Positions 5,229-40,897 of a stretch of DNA of 64,000 bases are shown one piece after another. Source of the stretch: Patescibacteria group bacterium (GTDB taxonomy: Bacteria; Patescibacteriota; Microgenomatia; UBA8517); contig DATDRP010000004.1 in the NCBI GenBank assembly GCA_035291665.1, positions 22,272-86,271 of the forward strand. The letters run 5' to 3'. Under the pieces are notes generated by a model. The model was not told where the DNA came from and ran no database searches. It saw nothing but the letters and a program-made list of their open reading frames with translations. The translations under genes and the position numbers were made by a program. Positions within the stretch are counted from its first letter, which is position 1. Every line of letters begins with the position of its first letter.

Positions 5229-5242
5229 TCATAAGATCTTAC

Positions 5243-6340: not shown

Positions 6341-6356
6341 TTAGTTTTTAAAGAAA

Positions 6357-21383: not shown

Positions 21384-22229
21384 TTAGGGGTAATTAATAT
21401 TAATCGGTTTATTTGGTTTTGATTTATCTTTTTTTCTGGCAATGATAAAGGCGATGACAAGAATTAGTAATACCAAAATCGATCCACCAATTATAACCAA
21501 TTTATTATTAGGATTGAAAATTCCGGAAGTTGAAGTGTAAACCCTTTCACCTGCGGGTTGGTTAGTGTCGGGGTTTGTTTTCGGATTCAAGGAGGGAAGA
21601 GGTCCTTCCGCATCGATTCCTTCTGTGAGAGACGTTTCATCAACCGAATCTGACCCACCCGTTGAATTCTCCGTGGGAGTAATGAGTAGTGTATCGTTTG
21701 CTTTCGGATCGGTGTTTTGGTATATGTATCCGGAAAAATTAGAAACCCTGCTTAGAATGTCACCTGTACCTTGGGAAACTGCTATGTTTGAATCAACAGT
21801 GCTTCCGGGTTCAAAATAAAACCAGACTTTTGCATTGCCTTCTTTGATTGCCTGGAATTTAATTTTAGCAAGTTCTCCCTTTCCGTTATAAGGTTTGTCG
21901 GGTGAATTAACAACACCGGATACGGTTACGGAACCTGTGTCATTATTGAAAAAAACCGAAGGGAAGTCATCGTAAATATCAGAAGCGTCAATTGCAACTA
22001 CTTTCAAAAGATTTGAATTAAAGAACAGTTTTGCACCCGCACCAAGTGAATTTTCACCATCGGTGTTTATCATTACTGAGATATCAATAACATCATATTT
22101 CTTAAGCGATGCCGATGCTGGATCCAAATAAAATTCCGGATTGGCAGCATGAATCTCACTAAAAGATAACAAAAATAGACTTACCAAAAAGACACTAAAT
22201 ATTTTTAAGTGAAGCACTTTTTTATTCAT
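21384..22229 (-). CDS. membrane-anchored protein with one cohesin-like domain (putative anchoring scaffoldin)
   Basis: Signal peptide, then a ~150-aa beta-sandwich-like segment whose pattern (...GAGAKLFFNSNLLKVVAID...SVFFNNDTGSVTVSGV...GKGELAKIKFQAIKEGNAKVWF) parallels cohesin signatures. A Thr/Ser/Pro/Asn-rich linker, a C-terminal TM helix and a KKDKSK stop-transfer follow. Confidence 0.55.
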   Translation of the reverse strand: MNKKVLHLKIFSVFLVSLFLLSFSEIHAANPEFYLDPASASLKKYDVIDISVMINTDGENSLGAGAKLFFNSNLLKVVAIDASDIYDDFPSVFFNNDTGSVTVSGVVNSPDKPYNGKGELAKIKFQAIKEGNAKVWFYFEPGSTVDSNIAVSQGTGDILSRVSNFSGYIYQNTDPKANDTLLITPTENSTGGSDSVDETSLTEGIDAEGPLPSLNPKTNPDTNQPAGERVYTSTSGIFNPNNKLVIIGGSILVLLILVIAFIIARKKDKSKPNKPININYP

Positions 22230-22253: not shown

Positions 22254-24500
22254 TTAGAGCTGATCCTTCAATAGATTCCAGTTATGTCTCATGATGACAT
22301 AATCAAGGTTATTAATACTTCCGCTTCGATCCAAGTCAACCAAGGACAGAGCTGTGCCGTAGTTGGGGAGCATATTAAGCGTGTAGTCGATCTCGTTTAT
22401 TTCACCGTCTCCATTAAAGTCTCCGCCCAGAAGTATCGGGTTTGAAAGATCAAGATACGAGTTTGTGGTTGATATTACAACAGGGTTTGTATCGCTTCCG
22501 TATTTTCTCGGGAGATATCCTGCAGTCTGAATCAGGAAAACATAATTACCTGTGGCGATTGATAGGATTGCTTCTCCTGCTGTATTTGTGGTTGCGGTTG
22601 TTTGAGTGATCGTTGTTGTATTGGGTTTACGATAAGAAACTGTGATGTTCGCACTGTTACTTACCCCGGTTCTCAACTTTCCCTGCATCTTGATTTTCAA
22701 AGTAACACTTGATGGAGAAGGAGTATTCGTAGCCGATACCGATGTCGGGGTAGCAGTAGGAGGTACATTTGTAGGTGTTGCGGTTGGTACAGATGTGGGT
22801 GGAACTGCAGTCGGACTGACTATGGCTCCGGGTTGAGAATATACTTCAAATTCTGCAAGCTGGAAGTAGTAATTATTATCAGAAGCATTTATTCTCAACT
22901 TTGTTGCATTAATCCTGACATATCTTGCAGTAACTTGCGTGAAGGAGAATGACTGGACGTTACTTGTCGGAAGCGCATAATTCGTAAGGTTTGCGACAGT
23001 TGTCCAAGTCGAATTATTTTGGGAAACCTGAACTGCAAAGTCGATCGGAAAGCCTTGTCCGACGTTTGAAACGTCATTTCTGGGATAAAGATTGACTTTT
23101 CCAACTGTATAGTTTGTTCCCAAATCAACGGTTATCCATTCAGTATGGGAGACACTCAAATTACTAAAACTACTCCATCCGAATGGTGCTGCGGATGAAC
23201 TTGTGTTTCCGTCAACTGCACCTGTTTTGAACCAACCCCAGTTTTCAATTGAGCTGGATGCCAGAACTGCTTTATTGAGTGCCAAATTCAAGTTTGATTG
23301 AATCGTCGGTGTGGCTGTTGGAATTTGTGTGGGAATAGCAGTTGGCTGTACGGTAGGTTGAACAGTCGGCGTTGCTGTCGGAGTTTGGCTGCCTGTTATT
23401 ATTACGGACGTCCCGTTGACGCTTGTCAGGATATCTACCGGATCTTGAGTATTCCATGTTCCGGTAAGAACCATATTCGAGTCATTTCTACCTCCCGGAG
23501 TAAAGTCGAATGTAATCTGAGATCCGGAACTAACTGCGACTCCTTTGAAAATGATATCCCCAACATGGATATTCGATCCGTTAACAGGAGTGGTTGAGGT
23601 GCCGGATCCGACATTAACTGAAATATACGCAGTTCCGGTCGTATTATTGAAAGTTAGTCTTGGGGTTGAGGTAAATCTTGGTTCATTTCCTTTTACAACA
23701 GTCACGGCTTGAAGTACTGCCGGATTGTAGTTTACTATCGCGTCAATACCGTCAACGTTTTGTCCGGCCGTATCTCCATAGATACTTACTGTAAATTGAG
23801 TGTTCAGCGTCTTTGTGCCAGGATTTGTAAGGAAAAGCCTTGCAGAACTTACTGGATTTACGGTGATATTGGCTGGAGTTGTCTGAACACCGAGCAAAAC
23901 TGATTGCATGTTATATACTTCTGTGGATTGAGACAGGCTTACTACGGCTGTTTGATTTGAGTTTGAAGTATTTTGATCGAATGTCAGCTTTGCGATGTTG
24001 GCTATGCCGGAGAGTGGTGGTGCCGGTTGAGGAGTCGGAGTACTATCGTTATATCCGATTGCGATTACCAACCTGAAGCTACCCGTTGTATTTGCCGAGG
24101 CCATTGAAGTTTTTTGAACGACTGTCCAATATTGGGGGATTACTTGGATTTCTTGAGTAAGTTTGACCATCGTAGGATCAAAATTTCCTTGCAAATCGAC
24201 AAATCCCACCTGTTCACCCTGAGTATTAATATTAAGATCGAGTGTTGTTGAAGGAGGGACGGATGCCGTAGAAGGACTCAAGTAAAGACTAACTGTTGTG
24301 ACAGCCGCCTTCAGCCTAAGTCTGATTTCTCTTTGGACTAAATAAACTCCCACAATTGCAGAGATTGTCAGAAAAATTACCAATCCAAGCTGCATTGGAT
24401 GAAGTTTTTTAAGTTTGGCAAGCAAAACTCGAAACGCTTTTTTTAAGTCGACTACATTTTTTAACATAAATAAAAAATATGTCTTTATTAACAACATCAT
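22254..24500 (-). CDS. scaffoldin-like protein: N-terminal TM anchor, two cohesin-like domains, F5/8-type-C (discoidin/CBM32-like) domain, divergent C-terminal dockerin-like module
   Basis: - Cohesin-like patterns: VGFVDLQGNFDPTMVKL...SGIANIAKLTFD and VDGIDAIVNYNPAVLQAVTV...GDIIFKGVAVSSGSQITFDF.
- Discoidin signature: ...WSSFS...EWITVDLGTNYTVGKVNLYPRND...
- C-terminus: GGDFNGDGEINEIDY...DLDRSGSINNLDYVIM, two Ca-loop-like segments. Confidence 0.6.
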   Translation of the reverse strand: MMLLIKTYFLFMLKNVVDLKKAFRVLLAKLKKLHPMQLGLVIFLTISAIVGVYLVQREIRLRLKAAVTTVSLYLSPSTASVPPSTTLDLNINTQGEQVGFVDLQGNFDPTMVKLTQEIQVIPQYWTVVQKTSMASANTTGSFRLVIAIGYNDSTPTPQPAPPLSGIANIAKLTFDQNTSNSNQTAVVSLSQSTEVYNMQSVLLGVQTTPANITVNPVSSARLFLTNPGTKTLNTQFTVSIYGDTAGQNVDGIDAIVNYNPAVLQAVTVVKGNEPRFTSTPRLTFNNTTGTAYISVNVGSGTSTTPVNGSNIHVGDIIFKGVAVSSGSQITFDFTPGGRNDSNMVLTGTWNTQDPVDILTSVNGTSVIITGSQTPTATPTVQPTVQPTAIPTQIPTATPTIQSNLNLALNKAVLASSSIENWGWFKTGAVDGNTSSSAAPFGWSSFSNLSVSHTEWITVDLGTNYTVGKVNLYPRNDVSNVGQGFPIDFAVQVSQNNSTWTTVANLTNYALPTSNVQSFSFTQVTARYVRINATKLRINASDNNYYFQLAEFEVYSQPGAIVSPTAVPPTSVPTATPTNVPPTATPTSVSATNTPSPSSVTLKIKMQGKLRTGVSNSANITVSYRKPNTTTITQTTATTNTAGEAILSIATGNYVFLIQTAGYLPRKYGSDTNPVVISTTNSYLDLSNPILLGGDFNGDGEINEIDYTLNMLPNYGTALSLVDLDRSGSINNLDYVIMRHNWNLLKDQL

Positions 24501-24532: not shown

Positions 24533-25858
24533 TTATAGACTATAATTCCCAAACCAAACAATATAATCAGCGCCATTTACGATCCCGTCTCTATTAAAAT
24601 CTCCGACAATATTTCCCGAAGTTGTGGGTTTTTGATAGTTTGTAAACCAAATTAAGTAATCGGCGCCGTTTGCCTTGCCGTCTCCATTTGCATCACCGGA
24701 ATTTGACCGAATCGAAGTCGGGTATACCGAAGGCAACTGATCGCTAGCTGGGACAACCACTTCTACATAATTTGACAATACAGATTCCGATCCGTTTATA
24801 TTAACAGCCGAAACGTTATAAATATATGTTTTACCCGATGTAACGCTTGTATCGGTATACGAAGTCTGATTTGCAGTAAAATCGGGGCCGTATCCGCCAT
24901 CGTCGCGCCCAATCCGATAATGGGAAATGTAGGGAGTAGTAGATGAATTCCAGGAAAGCGATACCGATTTTGATGTGATTCCCGTGACTTTCAAATTTGA
25001 AGGAGCACATACAGCGGTTCTTATTACGTTTGCAGACGAGGATACGTTACCGGAATTATCCTGGGCTGTTACTTCATAGCTGTAAGAACCACAAGACAAC
25101 GATTTATCAGTATATTGATAGCTTTCAGTAACTTGATCCATGATCGGAGTGAAGCTGTGAATTTTTGTACCGTTACGCCAAATAGAATAATTCGGAATAT
25201 CGCGATTATCTTTGGATGCAGTGCTTGTCAATTCAAAACTGTATTGCATATAATCTGAAGTGTTCTTAACGGTCAGATACGGCGCAGTCGGAGCAGTTTT
25301 GTCGACAATATTTATTATATTGTAATCAAAAGCTTCCCATTCCTCATTAAATCCAAGGTCGGGATTGAATGCATGGGCGACAACCAAATAATCTCTAACG
25401 GGATATAAATTGCTGTCGAAAGAACAGGTGAATGGAGCTGAGAAGTCAGTACACAGTTCCCAAACGTTTGGTTTATCATAATTTTCTTCCAGTCCGAATT
25501 TGACATATTTGACATCACCTGTAGTTGTGACAGTTATGTTTACCAATCCTTCAGCACTATAACCCTCTTGGGGTGAAGTGACTGTGATTGTGATCAGACC
25601 GAGTGGGGGTGTGGGAAGCGGTGTGACGGTAGGGGTGGGAACTCCGCAAGACCAAATGCAGGATGTATCGTTTGAACAAGATGAGTACTCAAAACTTGAA
25701 CAATAGGAAGGACCTGTACAACAGGAATACGCTTCGGATCTTTCGGCGGTTTTCGGATTTTGTGTAAAAAAGATGGCTATATATAAAGTGACGGATAAGA
25801 TCCCGACTGCGGAAATCTGAAGGAATAACGGTTTTTTTAATTTGTTAAGAAAATGCAT
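24533..25858 (-). CDS. secreted Ig-like/fibronectin-III repeat protein with C-terminal dockerin-like module
   Basis: N-terminal hydrophobic anchor or signal, a Cys-rich segment and Fn3-like repeats (SNLKVTGITSKSVSLSWN...). C-terminal GDANGDGKANGADYLIWFTNY...GDFNRDGIVNGADYIVWFGNY. Confidence 0.65.
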   Translation of the reverse strand: MHFLNKLKKPLFLQISAVGILSVTLYIAIFFTQNPKTAERSEAYSCCTGPSYCSSFEYSSCSNDTSCIWSCGVPTPTVTPLPTPPLGLITITVTSPQEGYSAEGLVNITVTTTGDVKYVKFGLEENYDKPNVWELCTDFSAPFTCSFDSNLYPVRDYLVVAHAFNPDLGFNEEWEAFDYNIINIVDKTAPTAPYLTVKNTSDYMQYSFELTSTASKDNRDIPNYSIWRNGTKIHSFTPIMDQVTESYQYTDKSLSCGSYSYEVTAQDNSGNVSSSANVIRTAVCAPSNLKVTGITSKSVSLSWNSSTTPYISHYRIGRDDGGYGPDFTANQTSYTDTSVTSGKTYIYNVSAVNINGSESVLSNYVEVVVPASDQLPSVYPTSIRSNSGDANGDGKANGADYLIWFTNYQKPTTSGNIVGDFNRDGIVNGADYIVWFGNYSL

Positions 25859-25957: not shown

Positions 25958-26074
25958 ATACCCCATCTGAAGGCAATTGCCGAAGGATGGGGATGAATTG
26001 AATTAAGAATGTAACCTCGTTTAGACGGATCCGAAAGGATACCCCGCCTGAAAGCGACAGCGAGAGGGTGGGGA
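25958..26074. repeat. tandem duplicated hairpin element (2 x ~55 bp): taCCCCaTCtgaaggcaattgccgaaggaTGGGG / taCCCCgCCtgaaagcgacagcgagagGGTGGGG
   Basis: Two adjacent stem-loops with 7-bp G/C stems sit in the intergenic gap between two minus-strand dockerin genes. The spurious 60-aa ORF 25900..26082 shows the repeat as HPxAxAFRxGIL x2. Confidence 0.55.
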
Positions 26075-26103
26075 GGTTTCATATCAATGTATAAGAAAAT
26101 AGA

Positions 26104-28005
26104 TCACTTCCCGTAATTTCCGAACCAGATGATGTAATCAGCTCCGTTAACTATGGTATCTCTATTAAAATCTCCTGCTGATGGACCTTGGCTGGTTGTT
26201 TTTTTGTAGTTATTAAACCAGATCAAGTAATCGGCTCCGTTTACTTTTCCGTCGCCATTTGCATCCCCCGGTTTTGAAGTCGCCGTCGGGGTGGCTGTTG
26301 GAGTAACACTCGGTCCGCCGGTTGGCGGAGTAGGAGTAGATGAAGCCTGCGGTGTAGGCGAGGGTGGTATCGAACCGTTTACACTTATAGCTGTTGAAAA
26401 TTCACTTGCCAGTCCCGACCACTCAACCGATTTAACTTTAAACCAGGTATTTGATGTTGATCCTTGGTATCCGATACTGCCTGTATACAACCAGACAAAA
26501 GAGTCGTTCCAATGCTCGGCCGCGGTTGATCCCAGTACTCCTCGGACCAAGCCTGTAAACGAGGTGGGGGTCCTGCCGGTATAACTGACTAGTTCATTTG
26601 GTTTTTCGGATGACAGACCGGATATCTCCAGTGTACCTTGATCTGGAAAACCTGTTGTAGAATCTACATTAATTGAAGTTTGGTTATTTGTAATTTTGCT
26701 GGGAGCGTTCAGGTACGTTAACAATGAGGGGAGCAATGCAATCTGGTTATAAGTTCCCCCCTGGCTGGTGGAACCGTATATTTGATATTCCTTAATTTCC
26801 CGATGGTTAGGAGCGGGTTTAAAAGTGACTATTACATTACCGCCCGACGAAACCGCTTTCATATCAGAAGGTGCGGCGGGTTTCTTAAAAATAACATAGT
26901 AGAGATTTTTGTTTCCAGCTTGGCGAATATCTCCGCTAAATGCAATTTTAGTCGTATCGGGACTGAAGCTGGCGTTGACATAATCCCTGCCCGCATCACT
27001 CCCGTAATTTGCCACTCTTACCGGAGCCGATCCGGAAGTTGTGAGCGGTTGCGGAACACTGAAGACAAGAACGTGACCAACCTCGCCTCCAAGGTTAGCT
27101 CCCAGAACCATCCATTTAGCGTCAGGACTGAAGTTGGTGTGATCGCCATAAACTGCACCGTTTATCATAGTTAATTGTCTGGTTGCCGTATCTCGGGCAA
27201 AAAGAGTATTTGCATATTGAAAATCCGACCCATTCCCTCCGATCCAACCTTGACCTCCACCAATCATATAAGCAGAATCGGACAGGGTAGGATGGTCAAA
27301 AAGTCCTGCCCAGGTTTGGTTCCCTACATTAAGCTGGCCAAGAAATGTACCGGTATTAACATCAAAAACCATCGGTACATCTGTATATTGTTCCCATTGG
27401 CTATTATTAAGATACCAAGCGGCATTGTTACCCAGCCAGCCGTGGGTAACATCAAACCCACCTGACTGTCTGCCGGGGGAAACATAACCACGGCAATTTG
27501 TACCGTCAAGGTTAATGAACTTAACTGTACCTGTCCCGGAGCTGATATCGTTGGAGTTAGCAATACCTGAGAGTGTCCTTCCGTCGGGGCTAAGCATAGA
27601 AAAATAAAAAGGGAGGCAGGATGAGGCATTTGGAATTTGTGAAGATATGTTAGCGGCGATTTCTGTTTGGTAGAGATTTTCTTTTGAATAGTAGAACTTG
27701 CTGTCGTGGCTCCACCATCCCATCAGACCTTCCCCGACACCGCTGGAAGGGGCGCTTAAAGTGTGATTATTGTTTCCGTCAGTATTCATAACGTTATTAG
27801 GTCCGGTGATTATATATTGGCCATTAGGACTGAATGGGTTGGAAGTGTAATAAGAGGTAGGGTAGCTTGCAGAAGTATTAGTCATTCGCCATATTTCAAA
27901 GCCGGTTTCCGGATCGGTAAAGATTTCCTTGGGAGCTGCCTGAACAGGTGAGACAAAGATGGTAATAGTTAATATTGCGATAAAAACCTTAAACCAATGT
28001 GACAT
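26104..28005 (-). CDS. secreted beta-propeller (TolB/WD40-like) plus Fn3-like protein with C-terminal dockerin-like module
   Basis: Signal peptide, repeated propeller-blade-like segments, a Fn3-like domain, a TP-rich linker (TPTATPTATSKP) and GDANGDGKVNGADYLIWFNNY...GDFNRDTIVNGADYIIWFGNYGK. Confidence 0.65.
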   Translation of the reverse strand: MSHWFKVFIAILTITIFVSPVQAAPKEIFTDPETGFEIWRMTNTSASYPTSYYTSNPFSPNGQYIITGPNNVMNTDGNNNHTLSAPSSGVGEGLMGWWSHDSKFYYSKENLYQTEIAANISSQIPNASSCLPFYFSMLSPDGRTLSGIANSNDISSGTGTVKFINLDGTNCRGYVSPGRQSGGFDVTHGWLGNNAAWYLNNSQWEQYTDVPMVFDVNTGTFLGQLNVGNQTWAGLFDHPTLSDSAYMIGGGQGWIGGNGSDFQYANTLFARDTATRQLTMINGAVYGDHTNFSPDAKWMVLGANLGGEVGHVLVFSVPQPLTTSGSAPVRVANYGSDAGRDYVNASFSPDTTKIAFSGDIRQAGNKNLYYVIFKKPAAPSDMKAVSSGGNVIVTFKPAPNHREIKEYQIYGSTSQGGTYNQIALLPSLLTYLNAPSKITNNQTSINVDSTTGFPDQGTLEISGLSSEKPNELVSYTGRTPTSFTGLVRGVLGSTAAEHWNDSFVWLYTGSIGYQGSTSNTWFKVKSVEWSGLASEFSTAISVNGSIPPSPTPQASSTPTPPTGGPSVTPTATPTATSKPGDANGDGKVNGADYLIWFNNYKKTTSQGPSAGDFNRDTIVNGADYIIWFGNYGK

Positions 28006-28058
28006 GGAAGTAATTTAATAATCCATCAAAGTGAGGGTTGATGTCAATAAAATTCAAT

Positions 28059-30686
28059 TTATTTCCCGTAATTCCCGAACCAGATGATGTAATCAGCTCC
28101 GTTAACTATGGTATCTCCATTAAAATCTCCTGCTGATGGACCTTGGCTGGTTGATTTTTTATAGTTATTAAACCAGATCAAGTAATCGGCTCCGTTTACT
28201 TTTCCGTCGCCATTTGCATCCCCCGGTTTTGAAGTCGCCGTCGGGGTGGCTGTCGGTATGATCGTCGGTATGGGAGTAGATATTCCGGTTGGGAAGGCCG
28301 TTGGTATAGGTGTGGATGTTGGTACGGGACTTCCGGTGTGGACTGCTTTGATGGCAATATCTTTATTAAGACCGCTTACGGGTATGGACAATGTACCTCC
28401 AGACGAGATTACACTGGTTGTAACTGCACCGGTATAAGTATTCCAGTACTCAATATTATATGTTCCCGCCTGAAGGTTCGGGATAGAAACGGTCGGATTG
28501 ATCGTCCCTGGTGTACCGGTATTTGACCAAATATAATCCCGATGCTGTACCCAAAGATATGCCCGGTAGCGGTCTCCGCTCACCAGTGCAAAGGCGCGGG
28601 TTTTACCTCCGGTATCGTTTTGGACAGAAAGCGTAGTACCGGTGTATCCGGATGGGGTGTCGGCCGCAGTCATGACGGAGGTGAAATTACTGGTTGAAAA
28701 ACTGATATTCTGAAAGAAATTTTTCATTACAAGTTTTTCCTGATTTACTAAATTTGAATATGAGCTGTCGTTTTGATTGTCATACCAGAATATGGGAGTG
28801 GTAGCCATTGGTGAGAACAGTCCGGTCCAGGCTCCATTATGATGTGCCCGGTGGGCACCCTCTCCGGTGGTTCCCTGCGGATTTGGCTGGTTCCATTCCG
28901 TCGTTCCCACACCGATTTCACCCCAGACAAACGGGCGGGGAGCCGATCCGGGTGTCCAATCGGTGCTGTCGCCGATACCCAAACCGTCGCAGTAATATTT
29001 ACCATACTGTCGGCCGTAGAGACACCAGGCAAAACGATGCACGAAGTTGACTTCATCGTTAGTAAGAGCGGAAGAGTAGCGGCTGATCATCATATAATCA
29101 TGGTAATTGGTGAGGTTGAATGCAGGGGAGGACCAGAATGCCGGACTGAATGCCTGAGATCCCTGGGAAGTGGTGCGCATGTGCTGGTAAATATCGGTTT
29201 GCTTCTGATAATCAGCATACTGTTGGAAGAAATTAAATATTGATGTATTTGGAAGAACATGGCCAAGCTCATTATGGTTTTCCCAGGCAAGAATTGATGT
29301 TGCGTATCCCCACCGGGCCACACGGTAACGGAAATTCCGCTGCCAGCTTTTCAGTACCCACGGTTGCGACCAGTCCCAGGAATCAGGCGATTCAGGGTTA
29401 CCCGGCCAGGTAAACCAGGGACCCGAGCAGGAACAAAGCTGGATATAGACACTATTGGTTACTCCTGCGTCGATATACTGATCTTGCAGCCAGCATTCTT
29501 CCGGATTGAAGTAATTACCTAACGGACGGGGTAGCGTTGTATTCGAATTCGGATCGTTATTGACATTATCCTTGGCGAAATGCCGTTCCATATCACCGTC
29601 TGTTACTATCGAATAAAGGATGTTTCCCTGCGCGTCTACCGGTCCGAATTCAACATCATCAACATAACCACTACCTTGGAAGTAGACTACTAGATCCGAT
29701 GAAGGAGTATATGTGCGTTCTGAAAGGGTATAACTGGTGGAGTTGGCGTCGATCTGGGTGCCGGAGATTACGCTTCCCGGAAGCACCCCATTCAGTGACC
29801 TGAGGGATACGGTGACAGTGCCTTTGGTCCAGACTTTTAATTTATGGGAGCGGTTGGGTTCGGTGACAGCTAAACGTTGATACCAGGCTGTTCCGGGTTG
29901 AGCTGCCCTCATACCGGAATGGGTATTAGTATTGATTGTTACTCCGACGGCAGCCCCGTCTGTCGTGGAAGCATTAATCCAGGTTGTATGAGCGCCTTCG
30001 ACCCCCAGTGAAAAATCATTCTGGTCCCAAATCCGGATCAAATTAATTCCGTACTGCTTATCCTGAACAAATCTGCTTTCGTAGTTATCTCCCCAGGGAT
30101 ACCCGCGGGAAAGGGGGACATATGACGAGCCGTTGTCAAACACCATGTACCGGGGATCCTGTGGATTAGGCTTTATAAATCCCGGATTGGAATTGTCGGC
30201 TGTGATGCTGAAAGTTTGGGCAGAGGTTTGGGTCTTACCTTCTTTATCTTCAGCACTGACAGTATAAGAATAAGTTCCGACCTCCGACCAGGTGAACCGT
30301 CCTTTCCACACGGGAAGACCGGACTTACCCATAACATTTCTGCTTCCGACAATGTGCCGGGTGTAATCCTGGTAAAAGAATGCCGGAAGTACAAGCTGTT
30401 TACCGCTGGGTGTAGTGATGTTGATATTAACGGTTACTCCATCCACACCAAACCATGTCATACGCGACGGGTTTGCTGCCTGGGTGTCAGACGGATCGTA
30501 GAAATAATAAGGATTGGGGTACGTTTTGGATAGATTAAATGAGAATTCGATTTTCTGATATTTTTTAACCGATGCTGACGAAGGAGAAACCGTAACAGGT
30601 CCGGTAACCTGCGGGGCGGCTGCCTTTACCGGTACAGAAGAAATAGCAAGAAATAAAAAAATTAGAATAGCTTTTTTATATAGCAT
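28059..30686 (-). CDS. secreted putative glycoside hydrolase (N-terminal beta-sandwich plus TIM-barrel-like domain) with C-terminal dockerin-like module
   Basis: Signal peptide. An internal segment LAWENHNELGH is reminiscent of a clan GH-A catalytic NE motif, but the family is unassigned. The C-terminal linker and dockerin are nearly identical to those of the 26104 gene. Confidence 0.55.
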   Translation of the reverse strand: MLYKKAILIFLFLAISSVPVKAAAPQVTGPVTVSPSSASVKKYQKIEFSFNLSKTYPNPYYFYDPSDTQAANPSRMTWFGVDGVTVNINITTPSGKQLVLPAFFYQDYTRHIVGSRNVMGKSGLPVWKGRFTWSEVGTYSYTVSAEDKEGKTQTSAQTFSITADNSNPGFIKPNPQDPRYMVFDNGSSYVPLSRGYPWGDNYESRFVQDKQYGINLIRIWDQNDFSLGVEGAHTTWINASTTDGAAVGVTINTNTHSGMRAAQPGTAWYQRLAVTEPNRSHKLKVWTKGTVTVSLRSLNGVLPGSVISGTQIDANSTSYTLSERTYTPSSDLVVYFQGSGYVDDVEFGPVDAQGNILYSIVTDGDMERHFAKDNVNNDPNSNTTLPRPLGNYFNPEECWLQDQYIDAGVTNSVYIQLCSCSGPWFTWPGNPESPDSWDWSQPWVLKSWQRNFRYRVARWGYATSILAWENHNELGHVLPNTSIFNFFQQYADYQKQTDIYQHMRTTSQGSQAFSPAFWSSPAFNLTNYHDYMMISRYSSALTNDEVNFVHRFAWCLYGRQYGKYYCDGLGIGDSTDWTPGSAPRPFVWGEIGVGTTEWNQPNPQGTTGEGAHRAHHNGAWTGLFSPMATTPIFWYDNQNDSSYSNLVNQEKLVMKNFFQNISFSTSNFTSVMTAADTPSGYTGTTLSVQNDTGGKTRAFALVSGDRYRAYLWVQHRDYIWSNTGTPGTINPTVSIPNLQAGTYNIEYWNTYTGAVTTSVISSGGTLSIPVSGLNKDIAIKAVHTGSPVPTSTPIPTAFPTGISTPIPTIIPTATPTATSKPGDANGDGKVNGADYLIWFNNYKKSTSQGPSAGDFNGDTIVNGADYIIWFGNYGK

Positions 30687-30696
30687 TTATTTTGAT

Positions 30697-33342
30697 TTAT
30701 TTTATAGTAATTTGACTCGGATCGGTGGCGAATATCACCGGATCACCTTGGAAAAATTCCACTTTACCTTCAACCCAAATTGATTGGTGAAGCTGGTAGT
30801 CTTTTTCTATATTTGGGAAGTTGCTTAATTGTTCAACCGGGATTAAAACCTGTAACAACTGACTGTGAGGCTCATCGCAACTAAGGTAATAGTAACGGCT
30901 GCTTTTATGAATATATTTTATTTCGCAAGATGTTTTTATGTTTTGGAATTCGTATCCGATTGCGTAAAAGTAGGCAATAGATTGTGGTGGTCCTGATTCG
31001 ATATCAGCACCCAGCTGAATATTGGAAATCCCTGCAACCTCCGGAGATGATATTGTATTTGTATCAGCTTGAGTTCCTACATCTTTCAGAACAAAAATGG
31101 TGTTATTTATACTTTTGACTATAATATATTTTCCGCTTACCAGAACATATGGATTGATTGTCCAACCCCGCCCGTCAGCGTAAAATCCGTCGGGATAGCT
31201 ACGGTTACCACCTTCTGCACAGAGGTTAGTACACCAATGTGTAGTAGTGTTACAATTGCCGCACTGCTCCGCTGAAACGAATGGAGTATAAGAACCATTA
31301 ATAGGGTTTGTAAAAGTGGCACCGCGACTGTCACTTCTGTCAGTGATTTTCAGCCCTTCCAGTACAGCCAACCAGTGTGAGTGAAAAACCATATCACTGG
31401 AACCGGAAACCATACCCTGTTCATCCGTTTGGATATCAATAAACTTAACAAATCGAGCATCACCTCCGGTATATCCGGTGACAGTAGAATTATCCAAGAC
31501 CATTTCACCCATGGTGGCATCCTCACGGTAATCACACCAACCGCTGGCACAGGTTTGACCATTGCTATAGATTATGTACGCCACCTGCTTACCATTAGAA
31601 AGAGTACGGACAGCTGGTTGGGGACCGGAATAAAGCCAACCATTACCAAAAGCTCCAAATTTAATGGCTGGGGTAAACATTCGGGCACCTGTGTCCAAAC
31701 TCAAAGCGAAGAGGGTTTGATAATTAGGATTCGCATCAAGGGTTTGTTTAATACCGGCGTTTGTGGTCGGCATGGGAGAAGCAAAATACATTGCATTGTA
31801 ACCATGGCGCATTCGCATGAGTACAATTCCTGTATTGTCAGCGATGACAGGCCAGTTATGTCGGAATTCGTAACAGGCGCTACCTTCTCCGTCCGAGCCA
31901 CAATACCAATTGTTTGTTGTTGGTTTTACATTCCATCGGAGGGTACTACTACTATTGTTGATCGCTCTGACTCGTAAATCCGGATCAGTTGCATAAACAA
32001 TCACATCATACCGGGCGGAATATGAAGGCATGGTAACTTGATTAATACCTGAACCGGGGTTATACGGCCACCCGCCACCCGGAGAACTAAGGTTCGCTGT
32101 AGAAAGTTTATGTAATTTTCCATCATTGGCGGTAAAATAAACATAGTTTCCAGCAATTAACGGGGAAGTGGTTAAACTTGCTCCGGCATTAAAACTATTG
32201 AGCGTTGTACCGTTTGATCCGTTTAATTTGTATAATGTATTTCCAGATGCAACAAAAACTGCATCTGTACCCGAATCATATGCTGCCGAACTGTTAAGAC
32301 CTCCAAGACTTTTTGTCCAAATATTTGATCCATTGGTAAGATTCAGTGCGTACAAAGTTCCGTTTCCAGCCGGTACATATACTCGATTATTTCCGACAGT
32401 CGGGTAGACTTGATACTCAGAAACGGAATCTACATCGCTTCTCATCCATTGGTAAGCCCAACTATTTGAAAGGTCAACGGTATTCCATCCGGTTCTCTGA
32501 GCGTTAAAAGCGTGTTGGCTCCATTCGGTGGTGGGATTACTTGGCATCAGAGTCGGGGTTGGACCACTTGGTGTGGGGGTTGGCTGTTGGACTGTCGGAG
32601 TCGGAGGGACAGGTGTATTGGTTGCATTGGGAACAGGCGTATTTGTCGGATTGGGTGTGGGATTGGGTCCTGATGTATTTATGGTAATTCTATCAATGTC
32701 GGGTGCATACCCTGTATTATTAAGGAACCTTATAGTGTTATTTCCGGATGCAAGACTTACCGATATAGCTTTTGATGCAACTGTTGTCCAGCTTCCTGAA
32801 TTGGCGAATGAGTACAAAGCTGCAGCACTGCCGTTTATGCTTATTGACACATCCCGGTTGGGATCGCCGCTAATATAATATACAGTCATCGTGTAGGCAG
32901 CTTGTGAAAGAGAACTAATATTATTAAATTGAAGGTAATTCCCCGAACCTCCACCTATCCAGCCTACAATTTGTCCGCCTGAACATGTTGTACAGCTTCT
33001 TGCAGCAACAGCTCCCGCAAATGTATTTGAAGTTGATTCCGCTTCATATGAGGCAGTTCCTCCACCTATCGGAGTTGGAGTGGGGCCAACCTTACCGTAA
33101 TTATTAAACCAGATGAGGTAATCGGCTCCGTTCACTATGGTGTCACCATTAAAATCACCGGCTGATGCTCCCTGACTGGTTGACTTTTTATAATTGTTAA
33201 ACCAGACAATATAGTCGGCTCCATTTACTTTCCCGTCACCATTAGCATCTCCGGGAAGCGGTGATTGAGCTGCAGCATAATTGGAGCATGTTAAAAATAT
33301 TAAGGAAAATACCAATACAATCTTAAAATAAAGATTTCTCAT
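30697..33342 (-). CDS. secreted PQQ-like beta-propeller protein with N-terminal dockerin-like module
   Basis: Signal peptide, then PGDANGDGKVNGADYIVWFNNYKK...GDFNGDTIVNGADYLIWFNNYGK, a TP linker, PQQ-like repeats (YALNLTNGSNIWT...) and a Cys-rich C-terminal domain (WCDYREDATMGEMVLD). Confidence 0.7.
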   Translation of the reverse strand: MRNLYFKIVLVFSLIFLTCSNYAAAQSPLPGDANGDGKVNGADYIVWFNNYKKSTSQGASAGDFNGDTIVNGADYLIWFNNYGKVGPTPTPIGGGTASYEAESTSNTFAGAVAARSCTTCSGGQIVGWIGGGSGNYLQFNNISSLSQAAYTMTVYYISGDPNRDVSISINGSAAALYSFANSGSWTTVASKAISVSLASGNNTIRFLNNTGYAPDIDRITINTSGPNPTPNPTNTPVPNATNTPVPPTPTVQQPTPTPSGPTPTLMPSNPTTEWSQHAFNAQRTGWNTVDLSNSWAYQWMRSDVDSVSEYQVYPTVGNNRVYVPAGNGTLYALNLTNGSNIWTKSLGGLNSSAAYDSGTDAVFVASGNTLYKLNGSNGTTLNSFNAGASLTTSPLIAGNYVYFTANDGKLHKLSTANLSSPGGGWPYNPGSGINQVTMPSYSARYDVIVYATDPDLRVRAINNSSSTLRWNVKPTTNNWYCGSDGEGSACYEFRHNWPVIADNTGIVLMRMRHGYNAMYFASPMPTTNAGIKQTLDANPNYQTLFALSLDTGARMFTPAIKFGAFGNGWLYSGPQPAVRTLSNGKQVAYIIYSNGQTCASGWCDYREDATMGEMVLDNSTVTGYTGGDARFVKFIDIQTDEQGMVSGSSDMVFHSHWLAVLEGLKITDRSDSRGATFTNPINGSYTPFVSAEQCGNCNTTTHWCTNLCAEGGNRSYPDGFYADGRGWTINPYVLVSGKYIIVKSINNTIFVLKDVGTQADTNTISSPEVAGISNIQLGADIESGPPQSIAYFYAIGYEFQNIKTSCEIKYIHKSSRYYYLSCDEPHSQLLQVLIPVEQLSNFPNIEKDYQLHQSIWVEGKVEFFQGDPVIFATDPSQITIK

Positions 33343-33466
33343 ACTATGTACGGAAGTTTAATATACTTCTTAAGTCTATCTTACGAAGAATTTAATTATC
33401 AAGGACTAATTTGTAATTGGCCACAGAAGCCTGATATAAGAGTATATAAATAGTATTGGAAAGTTA
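33343..33466 (-). promoter_or_regulatory. conserved intergenic promoter region upstream of the 30697..33342 gene (duplicate of 37169..37291)
   Basis: The ~120-bp intergenic sequence is about 90% identical to the region upstream of the paralogous PQQ gene. On the minus strand it contains TTGATA...TATATT-like elements. Confidence 0.35.
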
Positions 33467-34699
33467 TTATTTGTTGTAGTTACTAAACCATACAATATAG
33501 TCAGCTCCGTTAACTATGGTATCTCTATTAAAATCTCCTGCTGATGGACCTTGACTGGTTGATTTTTTATAATTTGCAAACCAGATCAAATAATCCGCTC
33601 CGTTAACTTTCCCGTCACCATTTGCATCTCCGGGTTTGGAAGTCGCCGTTGGGGTGGCTGTCGGTATGATTGTCGGTGTGGGAGTAGGAGTATTGATAAC
33701 TCCGGATGTCGGAGTCGGGGAGGGGGGGCGCACTGTTGGTGTGGGAGACGGATTAACAGAAATTCCCGCGTTGGTCAGAATTTCCGTATCAGAAAAGAGT
33801 GTAAACGTTTGTGCGTATTTGCTGTTCATTGGTTCCATGAAGAGCTTATTTGAAAGCATGCCGTTAAGAACCGTACCCATATGACTGTCACTCATTACAG
33901 CGTTGTGAGGTTCATTATTGAATGAAGTAAGGCTTATTGTTTCGCCGGCAATCGTAAAACTGGTTCCGGCAAGTTGTGTACTTGCCCATTTATTAAAATC
34001 AAATAACGCGAGATTCCGTTGGGAAGCAATTGTTGCTATTCCCTGATTGACTGTATTAATAGCCTGGGTGGCACGTTGGCGTCCGGTTGCATTTGGGTAA
34101 AGCGATTGGATAAGCAAAAACTGCCCGGGATCACCGATGTTGGCAATTATTATTGGTATGTTTTTGGTGTTCAGGATTGTATCAACAGCGGTAGTAATAT
34201 TTGCAAGAATTCCGTTTATTTTTGATTGAATTTGGGCATCAGTCATTGTGCCGTTGTAAATTGGATCGTACGTGGCAACAGCAGGGTTAGGACTGAAATC
34301 ATTTGTTCCGATCCAAATTACTGCATGGGTAACCAATCCTTGTTGTACTTGTGAAGCCAAACCTGTATGTTGTCCCGAAGTAATCATGGATGACGCGTTA
34401 GCGGCAGTTCTTGCCCAATTGTATGCATACCCGCACCGTCTTGGTTCCGAACGGCATCCCCAAGCTCCCGCATTAACACCCCGGTATTTCACCAAAAGCT
34501 CTAACCAATTATAAGTTGTTGCACTATAGCTTCCACCCCGGTTATCATCAGCCCTGTATTCATCGGTATTGCTATCACCCAATATACCCAGCCCGGTAAT
34601 CGGCGCCCCTAATACTTTACCTGTAAAAAAGAGCTGGAAAATGAGTACCAGTAAGAAAATTTTAATTTTTGAGTTTTTCAATTTCAATTTAAGGTTCAT
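33467..34699 (-). CDS. secreted SGNH/GDSL-family hydrolase (esterase/lipase-like) with C-terminal dockerin-like module
   Basis: Signal peptide, a GDSNTD block-I motif (ILGDSNTDEY) and WIGTNDF. C-terminal TPTPT linker and dockerin. Confidence 0.7.
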   Translation of the reverse strand: MNLKLKLKNSKIKIFLLVLIFQLFFTGKVLGAPITGLGILGDSNTDEYRADDNRGGSYSATTYNWLELLVKYRGVNAGAWGCRSEPRRCGYAYNWARTAANASSMITSGQHTGLASQVQQGLVTHAVIWIGTNDFSPNPAVATYDPIYNGTMTDAQIQSKINGILANITTAVDTILNTKNIPIIIANIGDPGQFLLIQSLYPNATGRQRATQAINTVNQGIATIASQRNLALFDFNKWASTQLAGTSFTIAGETISLTSFNNEPHNAVMSDSHMGTVLNGMLSNKLFMEPMNSKYAQTFTLFSDTEILTNAGISVNPSPTPTVRPPSPTPTSGVINTPTPTPTIIPTATPTATSKPGDANGDGKVNGADYLIWFANYKKSTSQGPSAGDFNRDTIVNGADYIVWFSNYNK

Positions 34700-34855
34700 A
34701 TAATTTTCCGCTTAGTAATTTCTTGGTTATTGCTATTATTTATATTACCCTGTTATGGAATATTTTTAAACTGTCTTTAAAAAACCCTTCCTGGGCGGTG
34801 AGTATTTCATAAGTAAAGAGAGCGGCCTTTGAAAACCATAGATATTAAAGTTGGA

Positions 34856-37168
34856 TCATTCGACTATTTCTAACTGCCTTGGATCAGTCAGTATGATTTC
34901 CGGGTCAACGTTTTCGGGCCAATAAAGAGTTATTTTACCTGTTACCTGGACATTTTTACCCTTTAACGTCATTGGATCAAAAGTAAATTTTGACAGGTCT
35001 TGTGCAAAAATCCGAAGCAACAAATATCCGTCATGCGGATCAGTAAATCCAAGGTAAATCGCTTTCGGTAGATTATCTTTCGCTGAAACGATGCGTCCGG
35101 TTATGGTTACAACTTTATTAATATAGTTATCTGCTTCGTCATAAGTTATAACCGGGATTCCAGAATCGCTATTTTGTACTCCCAGGACTGTTTGATCTGA
35201 ACCAGTATCTGTTATCAGATTTTCGCTATCGGCATTTGCTGTTGGGCTGCCGTTTTCAAAAACCATTAAAGCGCCGTCGTTGGTTTTAAGAAGAACCTGA
35301 TTTGCGGATACGATTGTATACGGGCTAGAACCCCCATTTCTGTCGTTCATATACTCGTAAAAACCCGGAGGGTATGATCTTGTATCGCCATATGAATAAA
35401 GACCTTGCGAACAATATCTTGATGATGATAACGTGCAGCTGCTTTGACATACGGGAGGATTCGAGCAGCCCGGGTAATCGCAAGGAGACGTACAGCCGGC
35501 AACCCCGCCGGGACAGGTACATTGTCTCCAGATAACAAACGGTACATTTTCACTTGCAATTGGATTTGTAAATGTTAAACCCAAGTTTGAACTTCTATTC
35601 GTGATTCTAGCTGCAGCGTTAATCAACCAATGTCCATGAAAAATAATATCTTTAGACATCGTCAAATTCATCATCTCGTCGGTTTGGGTGTCCTGATATT
35701 TGATAAACCGTACATCTCCTGCCTGGTAACCGGAAACGGAGCTCGCATCCAAAACCATTTCACCCATTGTTGCATCCTCCCGGCCGTCGCACCATTGTCC
35801 GCTCGGCGGCGGGCAATTGCCGGGCGTAGAACAGCCTCCGCAGGTTAAAGCATTCCGCCAGATGATATAAACTACTTCTTTCCCGTCGCTCGTGATTGCA
35901 ACTACCGGCTTCGGGCCTAGCGATAAACTGCCTCCATCACCCGAGCCTCCGTTGCCAACTGCAGGCGGTACGTACGATGTTGCATCGCTCCAGCTTGTTG
36001 TTTTGCCTGAAACTGGCCATGCCGGAAGCCCGCTATCCAGATTTATGGCAAATAATGCTTGATCACCGGGTTTACCCTGAAGGTAACTTTTAATCTCACT
36101 ATTAGTATTGGGAAACATCTTATCCGTCCAAGTTGTCCATGGCAAGCGATACCGGACAAAGACTATGCCGTGGTTTTCAGCCACCACAGGCCAACTGTTG
36201 TTAAATTCTATTGATCCGGCAGAGTAAGTATTGATGGTAGGTTTAACTTTCCAAACCTGCGCCCCTGTTACTGCATTCACAGCATGTACATACAAATCCT
36301 GTGAATTGGCAATCAACAAATTCCGAGATGTTGAATAAGCTGGAGCGGTTACCAAAGTGTTGCCGGAATTATATGACCATACTTGCGTCATGTTGTCGGT
36401 ATTTACGGAAATTAAATTGGTAACAGCGGATAAATAAATTCTGTTATTAACAAGAAGGGGAGCGTAATTCAAAGCCTTCCCTGAGTTGAAAGTTCCGGTG
36501 ATTGCCCCGGTCGAGGCGTTGATTTTGTATAAATTGCCATTTGTTGAGGCAACATAAAGAAGCTCATTATTATAAACCGGCGAGGAATTCAGAGCTCCAA
36601 GTGCTGTATTCGACCACATAACGTTTCCGTTCGTTTTGTTCAAAGCATAAACTCCACCTTCTGAAACCATATAAATTCTACTTCCGCCGGTTATCGGTTG
36701 GACCAATCCCGGGACGCTCAAATGTCCTGTCTGAGTTTTTGCATCACTACCAGACCCGTTCCATTGCCAAATATGTTTCCAAGGTAAAGCTACAGTTTGG
36801 GTGGTAAAATTTGTCCTTTGTACGTCGTGTCCGAATTGAGTCCACTCACTTATTGTTGCCGGAACCGGAGTAGGTGTTGGTCCGGATGGTGTTGGAGTGG
36901 GCGAGATCCGTCCGTAATTATTAAACCAGATGAGGTAATCGGCTCCGTTTACCATGGTATCCCCATTAAAATCACCGGCTAGTGCGCCCTGACTAGTCGA
37001 CTTTTTATAGTTATTAAACCAGACCAAATAATCAGCTCCGTTTACTTTCCCGTCACCATTTGCATCTCCGGGTAGGGAAGATTGAGCTAATGCATAATTG
37101 GAACACGAAAGTAATAGTATTGAGGATATCAGTATCGTTTTAAGATGTAGATTACTAATCTTTTTCAT
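34856..37168 (-). CDS. secreted PQQ-like beta-propeller protein with N-terminal dockerin-like module (paralog of 30697..33342)
   Basis: Same architecture as its paralog, and they share WCDGREDATMGEMVLD and N-terminal dockerin sequences. Confidence 0.7.
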   Translation of the reverse strand: MKKISNLHLKTILISSILLLSCSNYALAQSSLPGDANGDGKVNGADYLVWFNNYKKSTSQGALAGDFNGDTMVNGADYLIWFNNYGRISPTPTPSGPTPTPVPATISEWTQFGHDVQRTNFTTQTVALPWKHIWQWNGSGSDAKTQTGHLSVPGLVQPITGGSRIYMVSEGGVYALNKTNGNVMWSNTALGALNSSPVYNNELLYVASTNGNLYKINASTGAITGTFNSGKALNYAPLLVNNRIYLSAVTNLISVNTDNMTQVWSYNSGNTLVTAPAYSTSRNLLIANSQDLYVHAVNAVTGAQVWKVKPTINTYSAGSIEFNNSWPVVAENHGIVFVRYRLPWTTWTDKMFPNTNSEIKSYLQGKPGDQALFAINLDSGLPAWPVSGKTTSWSDATSYVPPAVGNGGSGDGGSLSLGPKPVVAITSDGKEVVYIIWRNALTCGGCSTPGNCPPPSGQWCDGREDATMGEMVLDASSVSGYQAGDVRFIKYQDTQTDEMMNLTMSKDIIFHGHWLINAAARITNRSSNLGLTFTNPIASENVPFVIWRQCTCPGGVAGCTSPCDYPGCSNPPVCQSSCTLSSSRYCSQGLYSYGDTRSYPPGFYEYMNDRNGGSSPYTIVSANQVLLKTNDGALMVFENGSPTANADSENLITDTGSDQTVLGVQNSDSGIPVITYDEADNYINKVVTITGRIVSAKDNLPKAIYLGFTDPHDGYLLLRIFAQDLSKFTFDPMTLKGKNVQVTGKITLYWPENVDPEIILTDPRQLEIVE

Positions 37169-37291
37169 ACTATATACGGAAGTTTTGTATAATTGTTAAG
37201 TCTATCTTACGAAGAATTTGATTATCAAGGACTAATTTGAGTTTAGCCACCAGCAAACGATATACATATATATAGTAGTATGGTAAAGGTA
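37169..37291 (-). promoter_or_regulatory. conserved intergenic promoter region upstream of the 34856..37168 gene (duplicate of 33343..33466)
   Basis: See the 33343..33466 entry. Confidence 0.35.
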
Positions 37292-39649: not shown

Positions 39650-39733
39650 AATAAAGCCTTATATCATTTTGTTGCGGTTGAACATTGAAGTCAAGTGGTG
39701 TCAATGTTGTTTATCTCGAATATTAACAAAAAC

Positions 39734-40897
39734 TTACTTTCCGTAATTACCAAACCAAACTAAATAGTCTCCACCATTAACAAATCCATCCTCGTTAAAG
39801 TCTCCTGCTAATGCTCCCTGGCTGGTTGATTTTTTATAGTTATTAAACCAGACCAAATAATCCGCTCCGTTTACTTTCCCGTCGCCATTAGCATCCCCCG
39901 GTTTTACAGCAATTATCGGGGTAGCTGTTGGAGTAAGACTGGGTCCGCCGGTTGGGGGAGTAGAAGCACCGGGGATTGAACTTGCAATCCAAACAGATCC
40001 TTGCCGAAGATCGCCGGTTATACCGTTACCACTAGCGTCATTCAAAATATATCCCGTCCCATTACCCTCATCCAGGTGATATAAAAGTAGTGTATTTATA
40101 TCATTAATGTATGGATTTGAGGGAGGAGTAAAACTTCCCTGATACCGTAAATTATTTGAGATCCTCAGTTCATCAAAATAACCGTTGTATGATGGATATT
40201 GACTTCCTGCATCATGTTTTTCAGCAGCAATGACAAGGTATGGGTCGCTCTCATTACAACTCGGTCCGGTTGAAAGATTAGTACAGCAGGTTGAACAGGG
40301 GACTGCGTTATCGGGATAAGATATTACTCCGTCAGGTCCGTCTGCTTCTGCCCTGACAATCCCGTCAACAAAGATCCACATATATCCATCCGATATTCGT
40401 CTCTCAATGGCAACATGGTGCCAAATGTCGTCAAGTACGGTATTACCACCGCAGATTGTGCGGTTTCCCGTACCGTTACCGCTGACGCCGAAAACCAATT
40501 TTCCGCCGGCAATTGATAAGCCGAATTTTCTGTCCTGGTTAAATCGGTCGCGGTCGATGACAATATTTCCGAATATCCAGTTGTCATTTGTTCCGCATGC
40601 GACGGATGAAGATGTATTATCAGCGCTTTTTGCTCTCATCCAAAATTCCAATGTAAAATCAGTATCTCCGATATCAGCAGCAGTACTTTCTGAATTTTGA
40701 CCATTAATTGGAATTTTAATCCGATCGAGCTGATTTGTGCCGGTTCCGTTAAACTTGAGAGCCGATCCAAAATCTGCGTAAGCTTTATTAAAGTTTGATA
40801 TTAAAAGAAAGAAAGCCGTAAGAAAAATAGTTAATAATCTCAACTGAAGGCTAATTGTAATTTTGTTTTTGAAGCGCTTTGTTAACATGATGTTCAA
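39734..40897 (-). CDS. secreted LamG/concanavalin-A-like lectin domain protein with C-terminal dockerin-like module
   Basis: Signal peptide. LamG-like pattern (LEFWMRAKS...DDIWHHVAIER...FDELRISN). C-terminal linker and dockerin (GDANGDGKVNGADYLVWFNNY...GDFNEDGFVNGGDYLVWFGNYGK). Confidence 0.7.
   Translation of the reverse strand: MNIMLTKRFKNKITISLQLRLLTIFLTAFFLLISNFNKAYADFGSALKFNGTGTNQLDRIKIPINGQNSESTAADIGDTDFTLEFWMRAKSADNTSSSVACGTNDNWIFGNIVIDRDRFNQDRKFGLSIAGGKLVFGVSGNGTGNRTICGGNTVLDDIWHHVAIERRISDGYMWIFVDGIVRAEADGPDGVISYPDNAVPCSTCCTNLSTGPSCNESDPYLVIAAEKHDAGSQYPSYNGYFDELRISNNLRYQGSFTPPSNPYINDINTLLLYHLDEGNGTGYILNDASGNGITGDLRQGSVWIASSIPGASTPPTGGPSLTPTATPIIAVKPGDANGDGKVNGADYLVWFNNYKKSTSQGALAGDFNEDGFVNGGDYLVWFGNYGK

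Follow-up and report, generated by a model that had tools for sequence, protein, structure and literature searches.

A membrane-anchored single-cohesin protein encoded beside a two-cohesin scaffoldin-like protein in a Patescibacterium: a candidate anchor for a cellulosome-like surface display

How a cohesin-dockerin system could be held at the surface of a Patescibacterium, and which of its dockerins would be bound there, are the questions raised by a small gene in contig DATDRP010000004.1 (positions 22,272 to 86,271; assembly GCA_035291665.1) of a Patescibacteria group bacterium (Microgenomatia; UBA8517). The gene lies in a stretch of 64,000 nucleotides (nt), analyzed here as a whole and called the window, and encodes a protein of 281 amino acids (aa). 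A preliminary description of the locus had read it as a membrane-anchored protein with one cohesin-like domain, adjacent to a scaffoldin-like gene, that would tether a complex to the membrane. Our analysis leads us to propose, with moderate confidence, that the 281-aa protein is a monovalent anchoring scaffoldin, most likely for the dockerin of the adjacent scaffoldin-like protein, within a three-tier display.

The cohesin domain and its attachment to the membrane

The open reading frame (ORF) of the 281-aa protein is not a product of chance, because NCBI lists the same sequence under HLE49135.1 ('cohesin domain-containing protein [Patescibacteria group bacterium]', on five contigs of up to 93 kb), it has relatives with the same full architecture and the hydrophobic segments at its two ends have been kept among them. 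This architecture comprises a signal peptide, a cohesin domain, a disordered linker, a C-terminal transmembrane (TM) helix and a basic tail (Table 1); the signal peptide, linker, TM helix and KKDKSK tail of the preliminary description were all reproduced by hydropathy and composition. According to hydropathy, the signal peptide is made up of an MNKK n-region, an h-region at residues 5-23 and a cleavage-like IHA-A site at residues 26-28; it contains no lipobox cysteine, and its cleavage is inferred from these features. The 19-residue Kyte-Doolittle average of the protein reaches its peak, 3.28, at residues 245-263. The stop codon of the gene is 26 nt away from the end of a convergent gene for an M16 peptidase.

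Direct searches did not recognize the domain. The Pfam family Cohesin (PF00963, gathering score 24.1 bits) found nothing in the 281-aa protein, not even at E<=1, the NCBIfam and Pfam scans of the protein returned weak matches of TM type and no cohesin, and nothing was found when the single sequence was searched against the PDB sequences, where a profile search gave as best match 4ums, the cohesin of an anchoring scaffoldin, at E 0.065. In contrast, PF00963 was matched by six of seven close relatives (best 2.2e-9) and, at E<=0.01, by 55 of the 75 full-length members that were aligned for the analysis of topology and motifs (best 8.3e-13). Thus, the cohesin hidden Markov model (HMM) that the preliminary description had proposed as a check failed on the protein itself and succeeded through its relatives. 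Six relatives were also found in a word-indexed search, at 31-51% identity by BLASTP, four of them with a precomputed PF00963 assignment, the relatives that have the same architecture are 26-52% identical to the protein, and alignments over its whole length gave 23-51% identity. The family is large: a HMMER search with an alignment of close relatives retrieved 6371 proteins with E<=1e-3, of which 1955 reach E<=1e-10 and 156 reach E<=1e-30. The best matches are mostly of 260-330 aa and cover the whole profile, and when grouped at 50% identity the family forms at least 156 clusters.

The predicted fold agrees with this family membership. In an AlphaFold2 (AF2) model built from seven sequences, residues 30-170 form a beta-sandwich with a predicted local distance difference test score (pLDDT) of ~80-90, and the top 50 matches of this model in the PDB by Foldseek were cohesins only, among which types I, II and III are represented (best 1g1k_A, E 1.5e-9, TMt 0.76), at sequence identities of only ~10-21% between the solved cohesins and the domain. 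The anchor cohesin looks type I-like, as the model lacks an inserted helix. Because of the predicted fold and of the relatives that match PF00963, we have accepted the domain as a cohesin, by fold and transitive homology and despite the failed direct Pfam test, so that the guess of a cohesin-like domain of ~150 aa is borne out. That this cohesin binds a dockerin is a prediction, supported by its genomic linkage to the nine dockerin genes described below. The most conserved stretch of the domain in the family, PGSTxDSNIAVxxGxGDIL, spans residues 141-159 (21753-21809, minus strand), with D146, N148, D157 and L159 invariant in the 75 sequences, and might act as a binding loop or coordinate a metal. 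Cohesins of the same type are also found in giant proteins of the family, among P0008 (2276 aa), P0017 (2059 aa) and P0066 (696 aa): of these three relatives, one has nine cohesins and a C-terminal dockerin, one has 14 cohesins and the third is fused to a weakly T4SS_pilin-like C-terminus.

With regard to anchoring, the C-terminal hydrophobic segment is present in all 75 members and the N-terminal one in 68 of them. The 12 residues that follow the TM segment contain on average 3.9 lysines or arginines vs 0.35 aspartates or glutamates, the corresponding values for the 17 residues before it being 1.4 and 1.2. The signal peptide together with this positive-inside bias suggests a type I topology, in which the cohesin faces the exterior and the tail the cytoplasm; this agrees with the preliminary description and argues against a cytoplasmic location of the domain. 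The surface anchor that an anchoring scaffoldin needs is found here in the C-terminal TM helix with its positive-inside tail. Neither SLH nor Gram_pos_anchor was detected by Pfam in the 281-aa protein, which has no LPXTG either, SLH is likewise absent from the 75 members, no SLH or LPXTG domains were found in the multi-cohesin relatives scanned, and LPXTG-like strings occur in only four of the 75 members. A plain TM anchor is therefore the best reading, and the claim that anchoring is by a TM helix rather than by SLH domains or a sortase stands. The reason given for it, that such an anchor is to be expected in a lineage that has no Gram-positive wall of the conventional kind, is weak. Patescibacteria are monoderms according to PMC11665869, genes for MreB, a TagA/WecG-type transferase and further glycosyltransferases are present in the window, and proteins that combine one cohesin with a TM helix at the C-terminus are also predicted in Firmicutes.

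The linker carries a motif of its own at residues 206-225 (21555..21614, minus strand; DAEGPLPSLNPKTNPDTNQP), with the family consensus DPxxP[I/L]xxQxPxTDPxxxQP and a conservation of 81% (D), 79% (P), 81% (P), 81% (P), 75% (T) and 71% (Q) in the main columns over the 75 sequences; it is placed ~18 residues ahead of the TM helix. Most relatives have in addition an amphipathic segment of ~10 aa ('SFIDKILSFL'-like), which the 281-aa protein lacks.

The scaffoldin-like neighbor, the cargo genes and their conserved order

The gene directly upstream of the anchor gene ends 24 nt before it, in the same frame, and encodes a protein of 748 aa (737 aa in the NCBI model, whose start lies 11 codons later). 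Its product consists of an N-terminal hydrophobic helix, two cohesins (residues ~66-215 and ~218-372), an F5/8 type C (discoidin) domain (414-556), an immunoglobulin (Ig)-like domain (~595-686) and a divergent dockerin (688-748), referred to here as S-class. The anchor family was aligned by hhalign to its residues 226-377 with a probability of 98.5% (E 3.8e-15), and the top Foldseek match of its AF2 model was 3l8q_D, the type II cohesin dyad of Acetivibrio cellulolyticus ScaA (E 7e-14, 358 columns). These two matches justify the label 'scaffoldin-like', and with two cohesins and a dockerin in its product the neighboring gene is what the preliminary description had taken it for.

Including the scaffoldin-like gene, nine dockerin-bearing genes lie directly upstream of the anchor gene and on the same strand. 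The other eight encode the putative cargo, with dockerins (Pfam Dockerin_1) that we call C-class: the 441-aa protein next to the scaffoldin (Table 1) and seven further secreted proteins, of 633 aa (PD40), 875 aa (DUF5060-like), 881 aa (N-terminal dockerin, CBM6 and a PQQ propeller), 410 aa (GDSL hydrolase), 770 aa (N-terminal dockerin and a propeller), 785 aa (of no recognized type) and 387 aa (LamG). Home-made HMMs found in the window no cohesin beyond those of the anchor and the scaffoldin, and no dockerin beyond those of these nine genes. The dockerins fall into two classes. The eight of the cargo are 56-95% identical to each other (representative PGDANGDGKVNGADYLIWFNNYKKSTSQGPSAGDFNGDTIVNGADYIIWFGNYGK) and have G-A at the recognition positions 10 and 11 of both repeats, whereas the dockerin of the 748-aa protein (GGDFNGDGEINEIDYTLNMLPNYGTALSLVDLDRSGSINNLDYVIMRHNWNLL) has E-I and N-L at these positions and is only 29-32% identical to the cargo dockerins of the window. 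The 441-aa, 748-aa and 281-aa genes may share a transcription unit; by consensus matches only, a promoter-like site is found at 25903-25874 and no terminator-like site downstream.

At the DNA level, the 207 nt that encode the C-class dockerin with its TPTATPT linker are present in eight copies between 24537 and 39944, at 62-95% identity, and this eight-fold repeat suggests that the cargo genes were recently duplicated or have undergone gene conversion. The 90 nt upstream of the genes of the two proteins with N-terminal dockerins (881 and 770 aa), 33335-33424 and 37161-37250, are 88% identical, and the first 272 nt of these genes 80% identical, which suggests that a promoter or leader was duplicated along with the beginning of the gene. 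The G+C content of the dockerin cluster (26001-40000) is 0.43-0.48 vs 0.29-0.39 in its flanks, and could reflect either the T/P/A/G-rich composition of the proteins or a foreign origin.

The cargo does not support calling this system a cellulosome in the strict sense, since it is not dominated by glycoside hydrolases acting on plant cell walls and the scaffoldin has, in place of a cellulose-binding CBM3, an F5/8 type C domain; 'cellulosome-like surface display' fits better. As most of the cargo consists of binding modules (beta-propellers, LamG, CBM6, discoidin and fn3), to which a GDSL hydrolase and a DUF5060-type protein are added, it looks like an array for surface adhesion and glycan processing by an episymbiont and not like a cellulase complex.

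The same arrangement was found in other genomes. Related loci were collected from species-representative genomes (14 loci), and exact-protein look-ups added L016, on a contig of 964,590 bp, and L018 (L017 duplicates L016). The order cargo, scaffoldin, anchor is kept in L001, L002, L003, L005, L006, L016 and L018, and L004 keeps part of it: the small anchor gene directly follows the gene of a ~550-aa protein that has two cohesins and ends in a dockerin, these two genes overlap by 14-17 nt in L016 and L018, and dockerin-bearing cargo genes lie further upstream. A profile search with the alignment of scaffoldin orthologs retrieved eleven further ones at E<1e-96. The two dockerin classes are kept as well: across genomes, identity is 50-65% among the scaffoldin dockerins and 23-36% between these and the cargo dockerins, and the cargo dockerins of the window are 39-56% identical to those of L001 and L002. 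The cargo itself varies between genomes (in L016 it consists of Pel9A-like beta-helix proteins), and outside the cohesin-dockerin module there is no synteny between the window and the related loci. The records of the related loci are titled as Patescibacteria, Saccharibacteria, Peregrinibacteria and Dojkabacteria. The third-party annotation (TPA) titles of L001, L003, L004 and L005 read 'uncultured Pseudomonadales/Gammaproteobacteria bacterium'; these labels are unconfirmed and are probably taxonomic mislabels. In L003 and L005 there is also an ORF of 95 aa with a third type of dockerin (VIGDTNNCDGKVNILDY...).

Elsewhere in the window, a PaaX-like protein is encoded at 19066-19863 (plus strand), near the M16 peptidase gene; its central domain matches PaaX_M (4.3e-13) and, below the cut-off, CRISPR_Cas2 (3.6e-4). 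A competence set is located at 4494-7259 (plus strand), with a ComEA-like protein (SLBB and HHH) and a ComEC that is split into an ORF with the Competence domain and a metallo-beta-lactamase ORF. A set of this kind is typical of the DNA-uptake genes of Patescibacteria.

Table 1. The anchor gene, its parts and the dockerin genes upstream of it (positions in the window)
Feature	Position	Strand	Basis
Whole anchor gene; 281-aa protein with signal peptide, cohesin, linker, TM helix and basic tail	21384..22229	minus	ATG-initiated ORF; stop codon 21384-21386
Signal peptide, residues 1-28	22146..22229	minus	hydropathy; AF2 helix 3-22
Cohesin domain, residues 29-172 (144 residues, non-hydrophobic)	21714..22145	minus	hydropathy, AF2 fold
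Disordered linker, residues 173-242 (70 residues)	21504..21713	minus	57% S/T/P/N/G; pLDDT <50 over 186-239
C-terminal TM helix, residues 243-265	21435..21503	minus	Kyte-Doolittle; AF2 helix 240-269
Predicted cytoplasmic basic tail KKDKSKPNKPININYP, residues 266-281	21387..21434	minus	5 K vs 1 D
748-aa scaffoldin-like protein	22254..24500	minus	Pfam F5_F8_type_C and Dockerin_1, hhalign, AF2, Foldseek
Cargo gene, 441 aa, fn3/Ig-like with C-terminal C-class dockerin	24533..25858	minus	Pfam, dockerin alignment
Seven further secreted cargo genes, near-identical C-class dockerins	26104..40897	minus	Pfam, PDB sequence search, dockerin alignment

Which partner for the anchor cohesin?

In the mechanism that we propose, the 281-aa protein would be exported by the Sec pathway, with removal of its signal peptide, and would stay in the cytoplasmic membrane in a type I orientation (N-out, C-in), held by the C-terminal helix and its lysine-rich stop-transfer tail. 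The flexible stalk of ~70 residues would lift a single cohesin above the membrane, and this cohesin would bind, in a calcium-dependent manner, the dockerin of a protein encoded directly upstream. By analogy with the type I/type II hierarchies of cellulosomes, the likeliest ligand would be the S-class dockerin of the 748-aa protein, whose own cohesins would in turn hold the eight C-class cargo proteins, giving rise to a three-tier cellulosome-like display. We favor this pairing because the genes for the scaffoldin and the anchor are tightly coupled and this coupling is conserved.

Several observations weigh against this proposal. In the main alternative, the anchor cohesin would bind the C-class dockerins of the cargo directly, as a parallel monovalent site, the two-cohesin neighbor being independent, either self-anchored or self-associating, and using its own dockerin for other contacts. 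We consider this alternative a real one, albeit doubtful. At the N-terminus of the 748-aa protein (24306-24500, minus strand), as in its orthologs of L001, L002 and L006, a charged n-region of up to ~40 residues is followed by a hydrophobic helix of ~20 residues, which is part of a single long helix (residues 35-63) in the AF2 model. As all the scaffoldin orthologs have such a helix of their own, the scaffoldin may not need a separate anchor. This N-terminus is ambiguous and can be read as an uncleaved signal anchor or as an atypical signal peptide; a pair of small residues (KAA, QAA or TGAAA) conserved ~10 residues past the hydrophobic segment could be a signal-peptidase site, which would count against self-anchoring. 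Furthermore, it is to cohesin 2 of the scaffoldin that the anchor cohesin is closest in sequence, as seen in the hhalign match mentioned above, and both have the conserved motif PGxxxDSN...DIL (PGGRNDSN...VDIL in the scaffoldin), so that the two cohesins could bind one and the same dockerin class. The correlation of domain distances (mirror-tree, partial correlation) across eight genomes does not discriminate between the three cohesins and so does not favor the pair of anchor cohesin and S-class dockerin, with partial r 0.17 for this pair and 0.22 and 0.17 for the scaffoldin cohesins, and at some loci the scaffoldin gene is followed by two small cohesin-TM genes in tandem (2084-3809 in L003 and 9157-10891 in L005). 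However, direct binding of the cargo is opposed by the fact that the scaffoldin and anchor genes are tightly adjacent or overlapping and have been kept so, and the high conservation of the S-class dockerin (mean distance 0.36) implies a dedicated cohesin partner that is equally conserved. We keep the S-class dockerin as the likeliest ligand of the anchor.

Other objections concern the domain itself and the nature of its attachment. The lack of a direct Pfam Cohesin match on the 281-aa protein has already been mentioned, and the conserved stretch at residues 141-159 is also the only low-confidence part of the domain in the AF2 model, with pLDDT <50 at 143-157. A cohesin-type fold that does not bind dockerins, serving as a generic domain of a membrane-anchored adhesin or stalk in the manner of Ig, CLIPPER or pilin-type sandwiches, would be in line with the missing match, the more so as non-cellulosomal cohesin-like modules with other partners exist and three of them (2jh2, 2vo8 and 2xdh) are among the structure matches. 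We judge it unlikely, given the number of relatives that match Cohesin and the fact that in no fewer than eight contigs the family is strictly linked to dockerin genes. About as unlikely is that the C-terminal helix and the basic cluster constitute a cleavable signal for an unrecognized sortase- or exosortase-like enzyme, with DPxxPIxxQxPxTDP as a possible recognition site and a mature protein linked to the wall. The C-terminal region does have the tripartite look of such signals (motif, hydrophobic helix and basic cluster), the linear motif being placed at a fairly constant ~15-20 residues before the helix, and NCBIfam GG_III-CTERM gave a sub-threshold match on the 281-aa protein (15.3 bits vs a cut-off of 22). 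But no signature motif lies directly before the helix, to which the conserved motif is not adjacent; no sorting-signal HMM is common to the family (GG_III-CTERM was found in one of the 75 members), in which LPXTG-like strings are as rare as stated above; the tails that extend past the basic cluster vary in length and are long (median 20 residues, maximum 71); and no sortase was found among the ORFs of the window that were scanned. A sorting signal was rejected on these grounds.

Relation to known cohesin systems and significance

The 281-aa protein resembles the monovalent anchoring scaffoldins of cellulosomes, namely SdbA, OlpA and OlpC of Clostridium thermocellum (anchored by SLH) and ScaE of Ruminococcus flavefaciens (anchored by sortase), in having a single cohesin, a flexible linker and a surface anchor, in the position of its gene beside a scaffoldin gene and in belonging to a system with two dockerin classes. 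Moreover, its model matches the cohesins of OlpA (3ul4), OlpC (4dh2) and ScaE (2zf9) and one of SdbA type (5k39). It differs from them in that its anchor is a TM helix, the cargo is not made of cellulases or hemicellulases and the host is a Patescibacterium. Single-cohesin scaffoldins with a C-terminal TM helix have been predicted in Firmicutes such as H. luporum, C. cibarium and Lachnoclostridium sp. MSJ-17 (PMC11557425) and Ruminococcus difficilis, HUN007, JE7B6 and others (bioRxiv 10.64898/2026.02.05.704116). Compared by architecture, these have in common with our protein a signal peptide, one cohesin and a TM helix at the C-terminus, the role proposed for them is likewise direct anchoring in the lipid bilayer, and some of their systems are also non-cellulolytic and have many dockerin proteins. 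The Patescibacteria family, in contrast, belongs to another phylum, has its own linker motif and its PGSTxDSNIAV...GDIL signature, and has a fixed operon partner, the two-cohesin scaffoldin with its conserved dockerin.

Closer to the host, proteins with cohesins and dockerins have been found by proteomics to be expressed in Candidatus Shapirobacterales, Microgenomates belonging to the CPR (candidate phyla radiation), where they were read as a cellulose-degrading cellulosome (bioRxiv 10.1101/2021.08.21.457207), a work that also cites a cohesin/dockerin study in Candidatus Roizmanbacterium. These reports concern the same superphylum; the TM-anchored single-cohesin family, its operon and the dockerin classes are not described in them, and the cargo of the window argues against cellulolysis, unlike their cellulosome interpretation. 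Known non-cellulosomal pairs are different again: the cohesins of Archaeoglobus fulgidus (2xdh) and Clostridium perfringens (2vo8, 2jh2 and 2w1n) are located within larger enzymes or soluble proteins, whereas here the membrane stalk is a dedicated one and its gene closes a cluster of dockerin genes. In a literature search of incomplete coverage we found no paper in which this TM-anchored family is described, nor its operon or the two classes of dockerin. The 281-aa gene itself is already annotated as encoding a cohesin-domain protein, and the role proposed for it follows the established logic of cellulosomes.

For cellulosome research, our proposal would extend the anchoring of monovalent scaffoldins by a TM helix beyond the Firmicutes and to a non-cellulolytic setting. 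As for the Patescibacteria, it is largely unknown how these ultra-small bacteria attach to and exploit their hosts, genes for surface proteins abound in their genomes, and a protein with a dockerin domain is essential in a cultivated Saccharibacterium (PMC10633639). More speculatively, the anchor, its two-cohesin partner and the two dockerin classes could form a modular display common to the Patescibacteria, in which lectin, propeller and hydrolase heads are swapped on a fixed membrane socket for attachment to host cells and for feeding, the DPxxPIxxQxPxTDP motif perhaps serving an additional interaction or processing step. A socket-and-plug system as compact as this, with one anchor cohesin, one scaffoldin and dockerin cargo that can be interchanged, would provide a handle on host attachment, and its cargo would be a set of candidate host-binding proteins.

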